Shown here: positions 3,131-39,815 of the stretch, one piece after another
Layout of the letters: every line of letters starts with the position of its first letter
How positions within the stretch are numbered: the first letter of the stretch is position 1
NCBI RefSeq assembly: GCF_900205865.1
Contig: NZ_LT906662.1
Span: 1,623,411 to 1,687,410, forward strand
Direction: 5' to 3'
DNA from: Thermoanaerobacterium sp. RBIITD
GTDB taxonomy: Bacteria; Bacillota; Thermoanaerobacteria; Thermoanaerobacterales; Thermoanaerobacteraceae
DNA length: 64,000 nt
Position numbers and translations under genes: made by a program
The notes under the pieces: generated by a model
What the model was told of the DNA's origin: nothing
The model's input: only the letters and a program-made list of their open reading frames with translations
Database searches by the model: none

Positions 3131-4237
3131 ATGAAAGGAATGAAAGTTTATATGGTAAAATTAAATGTGGCGGTTTTATTTGGAGGACAATCAGGCGAGC
3201 ATGAGGTATCGAAAATGTCTGCAAAATCGATTATAAATAATATAAATAAAGATAAGTATGAAATTTATTTGGTTGGAATAACAAAATGCGGAGAATGGTA
3301 TTTATACAAGGGAGATGTTGAAAAAATTGAAACCGATGAGTGGAAGAAAGAAGCCATACCTGTTGTTATCGGACCATCAACAAAATATAAGGGAATATTA
3401 ACATTAAAAGACGGCAAATATGAATTTTATCCGATAGATGTCGTATTTCCTGTCCTTCATGGACCGAATGGTGAAGATGGTACAGTTCAAGGGCTTTTGG
3501 AGCTACTTGAAGTGCCGTATGTTGGTCCGAATGTACTGTCATCTTCATTGTGTATGGATAAAATATTTTCTAAGAGGCTTTTTAAAGAATCGGGCATACC
3601 AACACCTGATTTTACAATAGTTTATAGAAATGAATTAAATGATATAAATAAAAAAGATGAAATATTTAATAGAGTATCAGGGATTGGATATCCTTGTTTT
3701 ATAAAGCCTGCAAATATGGGTTCCAGCGTTGGCATTACAAAAGTTCATAATGAAAATGAATTATATGATGCCTTGAAATTAGCAGCAAAATATGATAGAA
3801 AAATAATTGTAGAGCAGGGAATTGATGCAAGGGAGATAGAATGTGCTGTTCTTGGCAATGAAAATCCTGAAGCATCTATTGCAGGTGAAATATTGCCGGC
3901 ACACGAATTTTATGATTACGATGCAAAATATTATGATGAAGCATCTAAGTTATTCATTCCTGCACCGATACCAGATGTAAAAATGGAGGAAATAAGAGAT
4001 TTAGCAGTAAAGGCGTTTGTTGCACTAGACTGTAGGGGTATGGCGCGAGTAGACTTTTTGATGGACAAAAATACAGGTAAAGTATATTTAAACGAGTTAA
4101 ATACGATACCAGGTTTTACAAAAATAAGTATGTATCCAAAACTATGGGAAGCGACGGGAAAGCCTTATCCTGTTTTGATTGATGAACTTATTGAGCTTGC
4201 AATATCTGCTAATAAAGAGAAGTGTACAAATTGGTAA
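3131..4237 (+). CDS. ddl: D-alanine--D-alanine ligase
   Basis: Ddl family N-terminus (VAVLFGGQSGEHEVS) with an ATP-grasp body and a length typical of Ddl. An alternative start is MVKLN at 3152. Confidence 0.85.
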   Translation: MKGMKVYMVKLNVAVLFGGQSGEHEVSKMSAKSIINNINKDKYEIYLVGITKCGEWYLYKGDVEKIETDEWKKEAIPVVIGPSTKYKGILTLKDGKYEFYPIDVVFPVLHGPNGEDGTVQGLLELLEVPYVGPNVLSSSLCMDKIFSKRLFKESGIPTPDFTIVYRNELNDINKKDEIFNRVSGIGYPCFIKPANMGSSVGITKVHNENELYDALKLAAKYDRKIIVEQGIDAREIECAVLGNENPEASIAGEILPAHEFYDYDAKYYDEASKLFIPAPIPDVKMEEIRDLAVKAFVALDCRGMARVDFLMDKNTGKVYLNELNTIPGFTKISMYPKLWEATGKPYPVLIDELIELAISANKEKCTNW

Positions 4238-6370: not shown

Positions 6371-8140
6371 ATGTTTCCTACCTTATTTTTGTTAGGAGGA
6401 GCCAATATGTTAGGAACTGAAATGATATTGGAAATATTGTATATTGTTTTGATTGGCGGAGGTTTGTTACTAGGCTTTCAAGTAAATCATCTTTATTTCT
6501 TGTTGCCAATTGTAGGTATTGCCATAGTTTTAATTATCAACAAAATTAAGAAAGATACTGAACAAGAAAAAGCAAAGAGAGAAATCAAAGAAAAATGGGG
6601 CAAAGACCATAAGGAAAAAAGAAATTTTGATTTTATTGAGAAGCTTTATAGAGCTCTTTTAAAGGAAGAGAATTGTGAAAATATCGATGATACCACATGG
6701 CGAGACCTCGATATGGATTTTGTATATGAGAAGCTTGACCATACAATGTCAAGTCCCGGTCAACAATATTTATATTATCTTCTAAGACATCTAATTCACG
6801 ATGAGGTAGAATTAAAAAATAGAAGTACTATGATTGAGGAATTTATGAAGAATAAAGATTATGCTGAGTTACTACAAGTTCATTTAAAAAGGATTGGGAA
6901 AGAGCAAAGTGTTGATATAGTAAGATACTTGTTAGAAGGTATGAAAATTGTTAATAATCCTCTTCCATTATATCAGATTTTAACTTTATTAGTTATTCTG
7001 TCGCCTGTTATTATTTATTTTGGTCATGGCTTTGGAGTACTTCTATTGATTGCGTTAGTTATGATAAATGGCATGGTTTATTCTAATACTAAATCCAAGA
7101 TATTTGAGGAAATGATGGTATTTGAGAATATATCGAAATTATTAAGATGTGTAAATGAAATAATAAAAGAGGATGGCGATAACCCTACTTTTGACTTTTC
7201 TAAATTAAAAGAACTTTATGATAAAGTAAAAAATATATATAGAAATGTAGGTTCAATTGAATTTTTAGAAAAAGCGGCAGCTGGAGGTGACTCAACCGGA
7301 ATATTGAGTTTTCTCAACATGTTATTATTAATAGAAGTAAGAAGCTTTTACAAATCAATTGATTTAATGAATAAATATAAAGGGGAATTACTTGATTTAT
7401 ATATTGAACTTGGCAAAATAGATGCGTATATTGCATTAGCATCGTACAAGGATAGCTTAAAGTACTACACAAAACCATCATTGTCGAAAAAGAAGCCATA
7501 TTTCCTTAGGGCTTTGGACCTATATCATCCACTTCTTAGTGACCCCGTGCCGAATTCCATCGAGGTAAGCGCTAGAGGAATCCTTTTGACAGGTTCAAAT
7601 GCATCTGGTAAGTCCACATTTTTAAAGACTATTGGTATAAATGCAATTTTCGCCCAAACTTTTAATACTGTACTTGCAAAAGAATATTCATCAAGCTATT
7701 TTAATGTGATGACATCTATAGGCACCCTTGACAATATAATTGGCGGTGACAGCTATTTCATGGTTGAAGCAAAATCCCTTAAGAGGATAATAGACACACT
7801 CAATGATGATGTCACTGTTTTATGTATACTTGATGAAATTTTCAGAGGAACAAATACAATAGAGAGGATAAGCGCTGCATCAGAAGTTCTTCACTATATG
7901 ATAAAGAAAAATTGTTTTGTCGTTGCCGCAACACATGATTTAGAGCTTACAAGCCTTGTCGAGGATTACTATGATAATTACCATTTTGAAGAAAATGTTG
8001 ATGATAATGATGTTAAATTTAATTATCTTTTGCAAAAAGGCCCATCAAGAAGTAGAAACGCCATAAAAATACTTAAATTGCTAGGATATCCGGAAGAAAT
8101 TTATAAAAACGCTATGGATAGAGCAAATGAAATTTTGTGA
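6371..8140 (+). CDS. MutS-family ATPase with N-terminal transmembrane region (MutS domain V only)
   Basis: Has N-terminal TM helices and a C-terminal MutS ABC-ATPase core (LLTGSNASGKSTFLK; DEIFRGTN; ATHD). No Smr or mismatch-binding domains are evident. Confidence 0.6.
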   Translation: MFPTLFLLGGANMLGTEMILEILYIVLIGGGLLLGFQVNHLYFLLPIVGIAIVLIINKIKKDTEQEKAKREIKEKWGKDHKEKRNFDFIEKLYRALLKEENCENIDDTTWRDLDMDFVYEKLDHTMSSPGQQYLYYLLRHLIHDEVELKNRSTMIEEFMKNKDYAELLQVHLKRIGKEQSVDIVRYLLEGMKIVNNPLPLYQILTLLVILSPVIIYFGHGFGVLLLIALVMINGMVYSNTKSKIFEEMMVFENISKLLRCVNEIIKEDGDNPTFDFSKLKELYDKVKNIYRNVGSIEFLEKAAAGGDSTGILSFLNMLLLIEVRSFYKSIDLMNKYKGELLDLYIELGKIDAYIALASYKDSLKYYTKPSLSKKKPYFLRALDLYHPLLSDPVPNSIEVSARGILLTGSNASGKSTFLKTIGINAIFAQTFNTVLAKEYSSSYFNVMTSIGTLDNIIGGDSYFMVEAKSLKRIIDTLNDDVTVLCILDEIFRGTNTIERISAASEVLHYMIKKNCFVVAATHDLELTSLVEDYYDNYHFEENVDDNDVKFNYLLQKGPSRSRNAIKILKLLGYPEEIYKNAMDRANEIL

Positions 8141-8186
8141 TATATAATAAAATATTGTCCTATAATATGGAATAGGAGGTGCTATC

Positions 8187-8822
8187 ATGAAAATAAGATA
8201 TTTCGGACATTCCTGTTTCAAGATAACGACAGACAGCGGTGTTTCTATTGTTACAGATCCGTTTGACAAGACTGTTGGCTATCCTTTGCCTGAGACTGAT
8301 GCGGATATTGTAATATCTACACATTCACATTATGACCACAATTATTTCAAAGCGATAAAGGGAAACTTTGATATAATAAATACACCTGGTGAACATAATG
8401 TAAAAGGGATTCACATAAAGGGTGTAAATACCTTTCATGATGATGAACACGGTGCAAAAAGAGGCAAAAATATTGTCTTTATTATGGATGTAGATGGCAT
8501 AAAAGTATGCCATGCTGGTGACCTTGGACATTTACTTACAGATGAAATGATATCGGAAATAAAACCTATTGATATATTAATGATACCTGTTGGAGGTTTT
8601 TTTACAATCGATGATAGACAGGCTGTAAAAGTTATTGATTCACTAAAACCAAAACTTACAATTGCCATGCATTTTAGGACACTTGCTGTTGATATGCCTA
8701 TTGAAACTGTTGATAACTTTTTGAAAATGACATGTGGTGAGAAAATCCAATCTAATGAAATTGATGTTAAAAAGAATGATTTAGAGGGAAAACCAAAAGT
8801 TATCGCATTGAATTATGAATAA
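8187..8822 (+). CDS. MBL-fold metallo-hydrolase
   Basis: Carries an HxHxDH motif (STHSHYDHN) and a later HAGD. An RBS (GGAGGTG) lies upstream. Confidence 0.7.
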   Translation: MKIRYFGHSCFKITTDSGVSIVTDPFDKTVGYPLPETDADIVISTHSHYDHNYFKAIKGNFDIINTPGEHNVKGIHIKGVNTFHDDEHGAKRGKNIVFIMDVDGIKVCHAGDLGHLLTDEMISEIKPIDILMIPVGGFFTIDDRQAVKVIDSLKPKLTIAMHFRTLAVDMPIETVDNFLKMTCGEKIQSNEIDVKKNDLEGKPKVIALNYE

Positions 8823-8926
8823 TATTTTTAAATAATAATTCAATTTAAAAATATTGACACTTATTTCCTAAAAATTTAAAGAATAATTAAGCCTAAATGG
8901 GACAACATAATAACGTAAGGTTCGTA

Positions 8927-9235
8927 ATGGTTGAGCCAAGACCATTTAAGGACGAAAGTTCTTAAATGGTCGGCCAAAGATTGATATCCGATCAAGTGGT
9001 CGGATATCAGTCGGAGGGCAGATTATAATATGTCTTGTAAGGCTTGATATTAGTCGAATTGGATTAATATCAGGTTAAAAGAGATGTATTATAGTCGAGC
9101 TAAGACTATTATAAGTTCCGAAGGTCAAATGTATGGCATAATGTTGTACTTAAACTGGAGGTCTGATATAGTTGAAAGATTATATCAGGTTTCTAAGGTA
9201 TTTATAATAGTCGAGCATAGGTCTTAATAAGTTTT
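8927..9235. repeat. array of imperfect tandem hairpin-forming repeats in an intergenic region
   Basis: Successive inverted repeats occur along the region: AATGGTTGAGCCAAGACCATT, TGATATCCGATCAAGTGGTCGGATATCA, CTTGATATTAG..TTAATATCAGG, TATAGTCGAGCTAAGACTAT, and CTGATATAGTTGAAAGATTATATCAG. An 80-nt core, comprising the GATAT hairpin plus TAnTAGTCGAGC...TTATAAGTT, is repeated with a period of about 118 nt. A TTGACA-like -35 lies at 8855. Confidence 0.5.
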
Positions 9236-9342
9236 GTAATGCTTTTATTAAGTCATATGTTTTGATTTAATAAAGGTATGTAAAGATTTATATAGGCTAA
9301 AGCGAAGATCATTACGAGCCTTTTTAAATATAATTTATATTG

Positions 9343-9374
9343 GAGACGGTACTTATTGAACCGTCTCTTATTTA
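9343..9374 (+). terminator. rho-independent terminator-like hairpin
   Basis: GAGACGGT-loop-ACCGTCTC followed by a T-rich tail. Confidence 0.45.
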
Positions 9375-9404
9375 TTATAATAAAATTATGACTTAAGTCA
9401 TATA

Positions 9405-9449
9405 AAATGGTGACTTTGTGTACTACAAAGATATCACCATTTTTTTTAT
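9405..9449 (+). terminator. rho-independent terminator
   Basis: AATGGTGA...TCACCATT stem followed by TTTTTTTT. Confidence 0.55.
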
Positions 9450-9487
9450 TATAATATTGTAAGATTAGATGAAAGGAGATATTGATT

Positions 9488-10423
9488 ATGAAAGCCGTAA
9501 GAATTGAAGGATTGACTAAAAGATTTGGAGATCTAGTGGCACTTGACAACATAAACCTAGAGATCGAAGAAGGGGAGATATATGGATTTTTAGGGCCTAA
9601 CGGCGCAGGTAAAAGCACAGCTATAAATATTATCTGTGGGCTTTTAAAAATAGACAAAGGAAATGTATATGTACTTGAAAAAGAAATAAGGAAAGATCCC
9701 GATTTTACAAAGAGAAATATCGGTATAGTTCCACAGGACATAGCAATATATGGAGATTTATCCGCATATGAAAATGTGAGCTTTTTTGCAAGCTTATACG
9801 GTTTAAAAGGGAGAGAGCTAAGGGAAAATGTTGAGATGGCATTAAAATTTGTTGGACTCGACGACAAAGCAAAGTGGATTGCAAATAAATTTTCCGGTGG
9901 AATGAAAAGAAGGCTTAATATAGCATGTGCAATAGCTCATAGGCCAAAGATTATCATTATGGATGAGCCGACAGTAGGCATAGATCCGCAGTCTAGAAAC
10001 CATATTTTAGAATCTGTAAGAAGGCTTAACGAGATGGGAAGTACAATAATATACACAAGTCATTACATGGAAGAAGTCGAAGCTATATGTACAAAAATAT
10101 CGATAATAGATCATGGCAAGATAATTGCAGAAGGCACGAAGGAAGAACTTAAGTCCATTATTACAGATACAAATACAACGATGATTACGGTTGGTTCAGT
10201 GACAAATATTGACGAAAACAAGCTTAAAAATATAAGTGGTGTAAGAAGCATTGATATTGATGAAAATGTGGTGAAAATAATAAGTTCAAGAGATGTAAAC
10301 AACCTGGATAAAATGATTTTATATTTCACATCAAATCATATACCGATTAAAAATGTGGAAACTCAGACACCTGATTTAGAGACAGTATTCCTCACGCTGA
10401 CAGGTAGGAAATTAAGGGATTAG
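9488..10423 (+). CDS. ABC transporter ATP-binding protein
   Basis: Walker A (GPNGAGKST), the ABC signature (FSGGMKRRL) and Walker B (IIIMDEPT). An RBS (AAAGGAGAT) lies 9 nt upstream of the ATG at 9488. Confidence 0.85.
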   Translation: MKAVRIEGLTKRFGDLVALDNINLEIEEGEIYGFLGPNGAGKSTAINIICGLLKIDKGNVYVLEKEIRKDPDFTKRNIGIVPQDIAIYGDLSAYENVSFFASLYGLKGRELRENVEMALKFVGLDDKAKWIANKFSGGMKRRLNIACAIAHRPKIIIMDEPTVGIDPQSRNHILESVRRLNEMGSTIIYTSHYMEEVEAICTKISIIDHGKIIAEGTKEELKSIITDTNTTMITVGSVTNIDENKLKNISGVRSIDIDENVVKIISSRDVNNLDKMILYFTSNHIPIKNVETQTPDLETVFLTLTGRKLRD

Positions 10424-10425
10424 GG

Positions 10426-11553
10426 GTGATTATAATGAGAATACTTAAAATTATGTTTAAAGAGATGAAAGGAAATCTGAGGGATAAAAAAGCAATGGCA
10501 ATGATGGTACTGTTTCCAATAGTGCTTATAACAATATTAGGCTTTGCTTTTTCTAATATATTTAACAGCAATTACACTATAAGCGGTATCAATGTAATTT
10601 ATACAGATAATGGAAACAAAGAAATATCAACCGGATTCCAAAATTTTATAAAAAACAGCAAGGAAATTGAAATAAAATTTGATGAGATAAAAAATATAGA
10701 TCAAGGAATAAATGATATAAAAAATGCGAAATATACAGGTTATATTGTTTTAAAAGATAATAATATTACACTCTATAAAAATGATAGAAATTTTTTAGAT
10801 ACTAATATTGTTGAAAGCATTTTAAAAGCTTTTATAGACAGATTTAATGTAATTTCGGTTATTGCCAAAGAAAATCCGGCGATAATTCAAAAAATAGCCA
10901 CAGATGATAATTATAATTTTACCGACATAGTGTCACTAAATAGGAATAAGCAGCCATCATCAAATGACTATTATTCTGTAACAATGTTAACACTTATTAT
11001 ACTTTATGGTTCTATAAGCGGTGTTTATTCTATAGGTGAAGAGAGAACAAAAAAAACAGGTGATAGGGTACTAATGAGCCCCGTAAGAAAATATGAGATA
11101 TTAACAGGCAAACTTCTTGGAGTTTCATTTGCCGTACTTTTACAATCAATTCTGGTATTTATATTCAGCAAATACATCCTTGGAGCAAATTGGGGTACAG
11201 ATATATTTACAATCTTCTTAATAATAATAAGTGAAATAATTTTTTCAATAAGTATCGGGATTTGCTTAGGCTTTTTAATTAAAAATACCAATGCAGCGTC
11301 AGGAGTAATCAACGTGGTAATTCCTTTTATAGCATTTCTTGGCGGTGCATATTTTCCTATAAACGAAACAGGAAGCATTGTATTGATGAAGTTAGCTGAT
11401 ATATCTCCTATCAAGTGGACAAATACATCTATATTTCAGGTGATATTTGCTAATAATTACGGCGATGTATCAATTGCATTAATGATTAACATAATATGTG
11501 CAGCAGTTTTTATAGCGCTATCAGCCTATTTTTTTAGAAAGGAGGCATTTTAA
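10426..11553 (+). CDS. ABC-2 family transporter permease
   Basis: N-terminal TM helix, a large extracytoplasmic loop, then five or more TM helices. It is translationally coupled to the upstream ATPase. Confidence 0.7.
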   Translation: MIIMRILKIMFKEMKGNLRDKKAMAMMVLFPIVLITILGFAFSNIFNSNYTISGINVIYTDNGNKEISTGFQNFIKNSKEIEIKFDEIKNIDQGINDIKNAKYTGYIVLKDNNITLYKNDRNFLDTNIVESILKAFIDRFNVISVIAKENPAIIQKIATDDNYNFTDIVSLNRNKQPSSNDYYSVTMLTLIILYGSISGVYSIGEERTKKTGDRVLMSPVRKYEILTGKLLGVSFAVLLQSILVFIFSKYILGANWGTDIFTIFLIIISEIIFSISIGICLGFLIKNTNAASGVINVVIPFIAFLGGAYFPINETGSIVLMKLADISPIKWTNTSIFQVIFANNYGDVSIALMINIICAAVFIALSAYFFRKEAF

Positions 11554-36689: not shown

Positions 36690-36732
36690 CTGACTTATAA
36701 TATTACTTGAGTAAAAATTTAATAGACTATGT

Positions 36733-36852
36733 CCGCTGGGGGAGCTTTAAGCTGAGATGGCAAATGCCGAACCCCTCGAACCTGATTAGGCTAATACCTA
36801 CGAAGGGAATGCGGTTATGAACCGCATATTTCATATGCGGTTTTTTGTTTTT
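36733..36852 (+). ncRNA. TPP (THI-box) riboswitch with intrinsic terminator expression platform
   Basis: CTGGGGGAGC...GCTGAGA...AACCCCTCGAACCTGATTAGGCTAATACCTACGAAGGGAA matches the TPP aptamer consensus. The terminator AACCGCATATTTCATATGCGGTTTTTT follows. Confidence 0.8.
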
Positions 36853-39440: not shown

Positions 39441-39815
39441 AAACAGATAATTATGCTGCAATAAGATGGCAATCAAAGTAAAAACGTATGTCAAAACAGA
39501 GCAGAAGTAATTTCATCTAAATCCCTTTGTATAGAATAATGTTTCAATAATTACTAATAATATAATCCACCCGGCTATATAGACCGGGTATTTATTTTTA
39601 CTCTTCGAGAGGTACTGGATATACAATATACTATATATAGCAGTTAATATAGAAAAACCAATATACCACATAAAATCACCTGATTTTATTTTGCTATATA
39701 GATAATAGATTATACATATAATATATTACAATAATTGTTAAGAAAACATTGACCATGCATTTGTGTTAATGTTAAAATTATTTGTAGGTAATAATAATTT
39801 TTAAGAGGTGTTATA

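Follow-up and report, generated by a model that had tools for sequence, protein, structure and literature searches.

The stretch analyzed here is a window of 64,000 nucleotides from Thermoanaerobacterium sp. RBIITD (contig NZ_LT906662.1). The element under study lies in an intergenic gap of about 660 bp (8823-9488) between a metallo-β-lactamase (MBL)-fold gene (8187-8822) and an ABC transporter ATPase gene, whose start was placed at the ATG at 9489, with AAGGAG upstream at 9473-9478. A HisKA_3/NarL two-component module is also located downstream. The gap is filled with inverted repeats and holds no conserved open reading frame (ORF). We found that its part from about 8915 to 9327 on the + strand is one conserved, highly structured non-coding RNA (ncRNA) of about 410 nt, a conclusion which we regard as practically certain. 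An earlier note on this DNA had described the gap as rich in stem-loops and free of any plausible ORF, which holds apart from a 47-aa ORF at 9084-9227. The ATG at 9084 is conserved, and the ORF starting there comprises 47, 34, 26, 20, 12 or 1 codons in different homologues. A small protein-coding gene at this position was therefore rejected, as the ORF is conserved in neither length nor frame.

Folding of 8885-9375 gave a minimum free energy (MFE) of -196.5 kcal/mol for the + strand, compared to -101.9 ± 5.5 kcal/mol for dinucleotide shuffles (z = -17.1) and to -108.8 kcal/mol for the - strand. The asymmetry between the strands is caused by G-U pairs: the MFE fold of 8915-9330 has 156 pairs, and 31 of these are of this type. 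In the MFE fold, the whole region is closed by a long-range helix, P1, and five further helices (P2 to P6) are modeled to radiate from the enclosed junction, giving a predicted six-helix junction. Because P1 is long-range, the stem-loops make up one fold and not a series of separate hairpins. In the earlier note, stem-loops with stems of 6-10 bp had been listed; the hairpins are present, but their stems are 13-18 bp long and the closing helix P1 had been missed. Regarding the loops, that of P2 reads GAAA, GCAA, GUAA or GGAA in 17 of 18 sequences and all others are free to vary; the internal loop of P6 is, as in P4, A-rich. A k-turn in an extension of P1 was considered and rejected by hand, since the G-A pairs would lie out of register with P1.

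Between successive helices lie short purine-rich linkers, all of the pattern RGTY-GRGCNNAG-RYY. These linkers, six in all, are nearly invariant and form the most conserved part of the RNA. The RNA is a six-fold pseudo-repeat of a purine-rich linker plus a helix with the same closing pairs, and the ring is closed by P1. On a larger scale, 9040-9120 and 9156-9236 are identical at 61 of 86 positions (71%) with an offset of 116 nt, and their alignment score is 29 compared to -3.8 ± 4.4 for shuffles. This repeat is an internal duplication of a module consisting of a hairpin, a linker and the next helix, and the RNA probably grew by duplication of such modules. The composite repeat of about 80 nt and about 70% identity that had been noticed earlier is thus borne out far above shuffled sequences, and the two sequence elements that had been seen upstream of it are present as well (AATGGTTGAGCCAA at 8926-8939 and AATGGTCGGCCAA at 8965-8977). 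The same account had included a diverged third copy, which is not significant (score of -2 compared to -8.7 ± 3.7), and had spoken of a tandem array; here the composite repeat is real, but Tandem Repeats Finder reports no array.

Homologues were found in related genomes and in metagenomes. The MBL protein of the window is 79% identical to the T. butyriciformans protein, and three Thermoanaerobacterium genomes keep the intergenic region behind their MBL gene (82-88%), as do one Thermoanaerobacter metagenome-assembled genome (MAG) and one Clostridia MAG (73%). A metagenome scan with two junction motifs yielded 12 matches, namely 11 added homologues and one locus (L024) that was rejected as a chance pattern match without homology. 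Contig look-ups via MBL homologues added L032, L033, L034 and L041. Alignment A4 contains 18 distinct full-length homologues, and the relatives are 313-417 nt long.

The RNAalifold consensus of A4 consists of 119 pairs, 57 of them with compensatory changes. By an independent count on the same structure, 58 of the 119 pairs changed on both sides, compared to 24 after shuffling and 8-15 after sliding. Standard pairs fill 98.3% of the cells; shuffling lowers this to 90.7% (0/500 reach the observed value) and sliding the partners by 1-3 columns to 31-40%. The covariation score follows the same order, with 0.339 observed, 0.196 shuffled and 0.05-0.08 slid. Every helix with at least 4 pairs holds at least 3 covarying pairs, e.g. 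five in P4 (mostly from L033 and L021), 17 in the P5 domain (alignment helices 7-9) and 11 in P6 (alignment helices 10-11). Some lineages have shorter or longer distal parts of P2, P4, P5b and P6 or lack them, the distal hairpin of P4 being shortened or absent outside the lineage of the window. In the case of L033, the RNA measures 313 nt and has no P5b, and in the case of L032 distal P4 is missing. The most divergent full-length homologue is L021 (4920-5336, - strand, 417 nt), in which P1 is nearly wholly rewritten through compensatory changes and P2 is longer; its contig ends 137 nt upstream of the RNA, and a phosphofructokinase gene lies downstream. Altogether, covariation in combination with variable tips marks this as a functional RNA structure of the + strand. 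The structured ncRNA that the earlier note had put forward as a candidate is thus strongly supported, and the conservation of the element in related genomes favors a new RNA. It occurs only in thermophiles of the Thermoanaerobacterium/Thermoanaerobacter type.

Table 1. Positions of the RNA, its helices and junction linkers (J) and its predicted transcription signals in the window.
Feature	Position	Strand	Description
-35-like block	8881..8885	+	GAATA; G[AT]ATA in 19/19 homologues listed, always 17 nt before the -10-like block
-10-like block	8903..8909	+	CAACATA; [CAT]AA[CT]ATA preceded by GG in all homologues
RNA gene	8915..9327	+	about 410 nt; six helices, P1 formed by the two ends; MFE and consensus structure, covariation controls
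P1, 5' strand	8917..8932	+	pairs with 9307-9322; 16 pairs, 100% of cells paired, 6 two-sided changes, many from L021
J1/2	8933..8939	+	GAGCCAA(G); GAGCC[AC]AG in 18/18; flanked GGTT-GAGCCAAG-AC
P2 hairpin	8940..8971	+	14 bp, GNRA-type tetraloop GAAA at 8954-8957; 10/14 pairs covary
J2/3	8972..8978	+	GGCCAAA(G); flanked GGTC-GGCCAAAG-AT
P3 hairpin	8979..9012	+	15 bp; 9/14 pairs covary, e.g. C-G / G-C / U-A at one position
J3/4	9013..9020	+	GGAGGGCA(G); flanked AGTC-GGAGGGCAG-AT
P4	9021..9096	+	basal 16-bp helix 9021-9036 / 9081-9096, A-rich internal loop, distal hairpin 9041-9076
J4/5	9097..9103	+	GAGCTAA(G), AGTCGAGCTAAGA identical in 18/18; flanked AGTC-GAGCTAAG-AC
P5 domain	9104..9212	+	basal helix 9104-9119 / 9197-9212; three-way junction with P5a 9122-9154 and P5b 9156-9195
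J5/6	9213..9219	+	GAGCATA(G); GTCGAGCA[TCA]AG in all sequences; flanked AGTC-GAGCATAG-GT
P6	9220..9298	+	basal helix 9220-9235 / 9283-9298, internal loop, distal hairpin 9239-9279 of variable length
J6/1	9299..9306	+	AAAGCGAA(G); AG[CT]GAAGA in all sequences; flanked GGCT-AAAGCGAAG-AT
P1, 3' strand	9307..9327	+	9307-9322 paired, running into a T-run
Extra intrinsic-terminator hairpin	9342..9377	+	GGAGACGGT...ACCGTCTCT, 9 bp, T-rich tail; Thermoanaerobacterium-type lineage only

Known Rfam families include OLE, GOLLD, ROOL, HEARO, raiA, 6S, RNase P, SRP, tmRNA and the group I and II introns. With Rfam 15, no match at E ≤ 1 was obtained within 8000-10500, i.e. the 2.5 kb around the element. Searches with the RNA alone and with its divergent homologue L021 returned only noise (best E = 1.3 for SNORA25, at 18 bits compared to a threshold of 85). 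As no credible match exists in Rfam 15, the element makes up a new RNA family; the Rfam scan, too, favors a new RNA. It belongs within the known kind of large, structured, stand-alone bacterial ncRNAs, and in the literature we found no description of such a large ncRNA in Thermoanaerobacter or Thermoanaerobacterium. For the window as a whole, the only Rfam family above threshold was a thiamine pyrophosphate (TPP) riboswitch at 36728-36826 (76.1 bits).

Other identities were considered as well. A search for tRNA and tmRNA genes with ARAGORN found none. Phage and plasmid collections (searched with BLAST) and viral contigs (scanned with the pattern) gave no match, which argues that the element is neither mobile nor viral. 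A mobile repeat of the MITE (miniature inverted-repeat transposable element), REP or BOX type was rejected, since BLAST and nhmmer give one copy in the window and one per locus. The statement of the earlier note that the repeats are no CRISPR array proved right: they are imperfect and irregular modules, the best of them 71% identical, no tandem repeats were found and there are no cas genes among the neighbors. An antitoxin RNA of a type III toxin-antitoxin system (ToxI type) was rejected because the repeats are imperfect and of unequal length and no conserved partner gene lies downstream.

Upstream of P1, the two promoter-like blocks are separated by exactly 17 nt of variable sequence in all homologues, and the second block ends 6-7 nt before the TAAGG of P1 in every one of them. 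Transcription is thus predicted to start at about 8915-8917, at the first base of P1. The sequence shows the features of sigma-G/F promoters, i.e. a -35 block of the form GnATA/GHATR, a spacer of 17-18 nt and an A-rich -10 block that ends in TA and often follows a G. The same two-block form is found in the sigma-F/G promoters mapped in C. difficile (Table S6, PMC3789822). In the window, the pattern GHATA-N17-NAANATA occurs 8 times, compared to 2.5 ± 1.7 expected, and these occurrences include sites upstream of the sleB-ypeB genes (484-512), of a gene for a small acid-soluble spore protein (SASP; 2744-2772) and of the RNA itself. The ssp genes and sleB are sigma-G dependent in B. subtilis. In Caloramator, the SASP promoter reads GATTA-N17-AAACATA after GGG and is almost the same as the promoter of the L033 RNA. 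Because the SASP and sleB promoters of the window share the form of the RNA promoter, we infer that the RNA is likely to be transcribed in the forespore by sigma-G or sigma-F.

At the other end, Thermoanaerobacter-type homologues carry T5-T8 directly 3' of P1, so that P1 itself looks like a terminator stem. In Thermoanaerobacterium-type homologues, including the window, P1 is followed by a shorter T-run and by an additional hairpin terminator. At the sequence level, the RNA thus resembles a stand-alone gene, with a conserved two-block promoter and with P1 plus U-tract and/or a hairpin terminator. Regarding these signals, the earlier note had proposed a TTGACA -35 element and two terminators. 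The TTGACA is present at 8854-8859, but is not conserved, being absent from 17/17 homologues checked. The first terminator, a hairpin with a T-rich tail, was found at 9342-9377. The second one, a 10-bp hairpin with T8 at 9404-9447, is also there, but belongs to the control region of the ABC operon and not to the RNA.

Other genes in the window carry promoters of this kind. The SASP gene (2801-2977, TTG start), which is 61% identical to a Caloramator SASP by tblastn and lies below the cutoffs of the ORF list used, is preceded by the forespore-type promoter GCATA-N17-GAAAATA. The sleB-like cell-wall hydrolase gene (546-1262) and the ypeB gene (1162-2607) are preceded by GTATA-N17-AAAAATA, again of the same form as the RNA promoter. 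In addition, a 52-aa hydrophobic ORF on the - strand (39513-39715, MWYIGFSILTAIYS...) has a good ribosome binding site, is preceded by GTATA-N17-CAAAATA and has no Pfam match; it may encode a small forespore membrane protein.

At every locus with a readable upstream side, the RNA is found directly 3' of an MBL gene on the same strand. The upstream protein (Lactamase_B_3, 210-217 aa) is closely related to Thermotoga TM0207 (PDB 1VJN, E = 9e-63), and a literature search on the function of TM0207 gave nothing relevant. The usual gene order is ddl, DUF1934, argS, an optional MutS-like gene, the MBL gene and then the RNA, which is present once per locus and invariably in this place behind the MBL gene. 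On the downstream side the genes vary from locus to locus: besides the ABC/two-component module, they encode a major facilitator superfamily (MFS) transporter, a GATase, a phosphofructokinase, a CN-hydrolase and, on the opposite strand, a P-type ATPase. In none of the homologues is the MBL stop codon separated from the RNA by a terminator, and thus the MBL mRNA must run into the RNA.

Two loci (L035 and L036) carry a 60%-identical MBL gene elsewhere, between trpR-like and IF-2B-like genes on the opposite strand. There, the MBL gene is followed by a structured element of about 210 nt (3647-3895 in both, z = -9.2) that keeps the promoter blocks, the 5' strand of P1 (GTAAGGTTCGTAA) and the 3' strand of P1 with T6, and whose interior is unrelated. 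Its 3' part contains a 17-bp hairpin that duplicates the sequence of the P1 5' strand (GGTCCGTAATGG...). We read this element as a probable reduced relative; it could be a subtype or a decayed copy. MBL orthologues of at most 55% identity are followed by a short spacer and a plain terminator, with no RNA by nhmmer profile search; such RNA-free loci include Tepidanaerobacter, Caloramator, a Thermoanaerobacterales MAG and others. In the case of P0001, with a 98% identical MBL, the contig ends 158 nt after the gene.

Two further observations concern this neighborhood. The promoter of the MBL gene is of the extended -10 type, TGnTATAAT (TGTGGTATAATATGG or TGTGTTATAATATGG; 8150-8186 and equivalents in L001-L034); it is strongly conserved and differs in type from the promoter of the RNA. 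It lies only about 7-10 nt upstream of the Shine-Dalgarno sequence, which implies that the 5' leader is very short. In the window, a gene located between argS and the MBL gene encodes a 589-aa protein with MutS domains III/V (6371-8140) that falls below the MutS1 and MutS2 cutoffs; the gene is present in the window, L002, L004, L030 and L043, and absent from L001, L003, L005, L029, L032 and L033.

Taken together with the observations above, an explanation that includes forespore transcription and a junction-centered function appears to us the best one, with a probability of about 0.7 for its shown parts as a whole. According to this explanation, the RNA would be made by two routes. As no terminator separates it from the hydrolase gene, it would arise as the 3' end of the hydrolase mRNA, and it would also be transcribed from its own conserved promoter, G[AT]ATA-N17-NAAYATA, starting at the first base of P1. 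Transcription would end at P1 and the U-tract, backed up in the window by the 9342-9377 hairpin, and the paired ends of the RNA would protect it against exonucleases. The junction is likely to be the functional core: a conserved core, a variable periphery and six equivalent sites suggest that the six linkers, kept in a ring by the junction, form a multi-site platform for a protein, probably an oligomer. We consider such protein binding the most likely single mode of action, with slightly less than an even chance and thus clearly below the confidence given to the explanation as a whole. Readings of the linkers as TRAP-like sites (11 NAG triplets) or as sites for the Hfq hexamer are speculation. 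While the spore develops or lies dormant, the RNA would serve as a scaffold or would sequester a protein, and it would act neither through base-pairing with mRNAs nor as a cis regulator.

Several observations weigh against this explanation. Regarding the promoter, the -10 block is NAAYATA and not the textbook CATnnTA, with A instead of T as its third base. It also overlaps a TATAAT/CATAAT hexamer, so that a sigma-A start a few bases further in is possible; where transcription starts and ends, and which sigma factor directs it, were all predicted from sequence alone. Regarding the partner, no candidate protein emerged from the sequences. The MBL proteins are acidic (pI about 5.8) and their charge is not shifted between RNA-containing and RNA-free lineages, which does not fit a classical RNA-binding partner; a physical complex of MBL and RNA is possible but unsupported. 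A search for covarying pseudoknots or long-range tertiary pairs gave only cross-matches between similar helix ends, and three short predicted linker-linker pairings (helices 2 and 4) never vary in the alignment. Finally, the clade is narrow (MBL orthologues of at least 60% identity), and the constant synteny could therefore reflect simple inheritance.

An alternative that takes up the missing terminator is that the element serves only as a cis-acting 3' untranslated region (UTR) or terminator structure of the MBL mRNA, stabilizing the message at high temperature. No terminator separates the MBL stop codon from the element in any homologue, P1 with its U-tract is the sole MBL terminator in Thermoanaerobacter-type loci, the -35 block of the L035 element overlaps the MBL stop codon, and the linkage has outlasted the relocation of the MBL/element pair. 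However, one hairpin would suffice for this role, leaving about 400 nt, six near-invariant single-stranded linkers and 119 conserved pairs superfluous, and a two-block promoter of fixed spacing directly before P1 in all homologues would have no purpose in a pure 3' UTR. We therefore judge this alternative improbable. Slightly less likely is a catalytic or self-assembling RNA, i.e. a ribozyme or homo-oligomeric particle in place of a protein platform. Its size, the conserved junction core with a variable periphery, the GNRA tetraloop of P2 and the A-rich internal loops of P4 and P6 are typical of RNAs with tertiary structure, and other large orphan bacterial RNAs form RNA-only oligomers (PMC12286853). 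Yet the loops other than that of P2 are not conserved, pseudoknot or loop-loop covariation was looked for and none was detected, and there is no evidence of a processing site.

Explanations that connect the element to the genes downstream of it have next to no credit. The earlier note had offered, as its other reading, an array of sites at which the downstream NarL-type regulator or a different protein would bind the DNA; linker flanks such as ATAGTC-N7-GACTAT are indeed inverted repeats in DNA, and the HisKA_3/NarL module does lie downstream in the window. This module, however, is missing from most homologous loci, the element being inherited with the upstream MBL gene, and a separate, conserved control region accompanies the ABC operon when it moves. 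Moreover, the G-U pairs, a fifth of the fold (31/156), would be mismatches in duplex DNA and on the other strand, and double changes preserve the pairing and not the sequence. Equally remote is a cis-regulatory leader, i.e. a riboswitch or attenuator of the ABC transporter operon. The element does lie upstream of this operon on the same strand, with terminator-like hairpins in between, but the genes downstream differ among loci and are sometimes on the opposite strand, the MBL gene upstream being the constant one, and in L004 and L031 a 485-aa gene stands between the RNA and the operon, which keeps its own upstream region. The terminator hairpin at 9342-9368 is separate from the fold and does not overlap it as an alternative structure; P1 has no alternative pairing with it. 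A leader was consequently rejected.

The control region of the ABC operon is a feature in its own right. The block 9385-9460 contains a perfect palindrome (TATGACTTAAGTCATA, 9387-9402), a further GTGACT half-site, the hairpin 9404-9443 with T8 and a TATAAT at 9451-9456, and L002, L003, L004 and L031 share it, in each case upstream of the ABC ATPase gene. The ABC operons of L004 and L031 are not adjacent to the RNA, and the outer hairpin of the block is found only in the window and in these two loci; the hairpin 9404-9447 and its surroundings travel with the ABC transporter gene and not with the RNA. The block is probably the operator and promoter of the ABC/HisKA_3/NarL module.

A number of known systems invite comparison. 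In kind, the RNA is akin to large orphan RNAs of Firmicutes (OLE, raiA) and to forespore sRNAs of Bacillus (CsfG, Bvs196), but in fold, modular junction, gene partner and taxonomic range it is unlike any of them. In PMC9723947, OLE RNA is presented as a large, intricately folded, stand-alone ncRNA of anaerobic or extremophilic Gram-positives with an unclear biochemical function, and like it the present RNA is a large folded RNA, predicted to stand alone, with conserved nucleotides interspersed with variable helices. In contrast to OLE, it measures about 410 nt instead of about 600 nt, is built around a modular junction of six-fold design, has a TM0207-type hydrolase gene and not the oap genes as its linked partner, shows a much narrower distribution and gives no covariance-model match to any Rfam family. 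In the case of the raiA motif RNA, a structured ncRNA of Firmicutes, disruption affects sporulation (PMC10861870); the present RNA also points to spore biology, solely by way of its promoter, but differs from raiA in fold and size and has no Rfam match. In Bacillus, the ncRNA CsfG is under sigma-F/sigma-G control and restricted to the forespore, and Bvs196/S547 (294 nt) is expressed through middle and late sporulation (PMC9147052). Like these, the present RNA is predicted to be independently transcribed, yet there is no sequence relation; the Bacillus RNAs are thought to act on mRNAs, whereas the present RNA is larger, belongs to the Thermoanaerobacteraceae and has conserved junction linkers instead of accessible seed loops. 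The bacterial RNAs GOLLD and ROOL, ornate and very large, can work as RNA-only assemblies (PMC12286853). The present RNA is smaller than those, chromosomal and at a fixed locus, with no Rfam match and no phage or viral homologues found. Finally, protein-sequestering RNAs of the CsrB/RsmZ type carry GGA motifs in hairpin loops that are bound by CsrA. Here the likeness, a short motif repeated between hairpins within one RNA, is an analogy and not a membership, since the present RNA has six copies of GRGCNNAG, and not GGA, at the helix junctions of a closed ring.

Bacterial RNAs of more than about 300 nt with extensive conserved structure are few, and those that are understood proved to be ribozymes, ribonucleoprotein cores or RNA-only assemblies. 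Each new class is therefore a candidate for new biochemistry. The narrow distribution of the present RNA limits its general importance; three handles are available for its study, namely a build of six modules whose invariant linkers lend themselves to mutation, a promoter pointing to expression in the forespore and a constant partner gene. Some members of Thermoanaerobacterium and Thermoanaerobacter are genetically tractable, and a crystal structure exists for a relative of the partner protein (TM0207, PDB 1VJN). In its most far-reaching form, which we consider rather unlikely, the proposal would be a hitherto undescribed class of large RNAs confined to thermophiles that form endospores. Such an RNA would be produced in the forespore and then kept in the spore, and its six-fold pseudo-symmetric junction would dock a ring-shaped or oligomeric protein or act as a self-organizing or catalytic core. 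If true, spore dormancy or germination would involve a novel ribonucleoprotein or RNA machine with a genetic link to a TM0207-type metallo-hydrolase.

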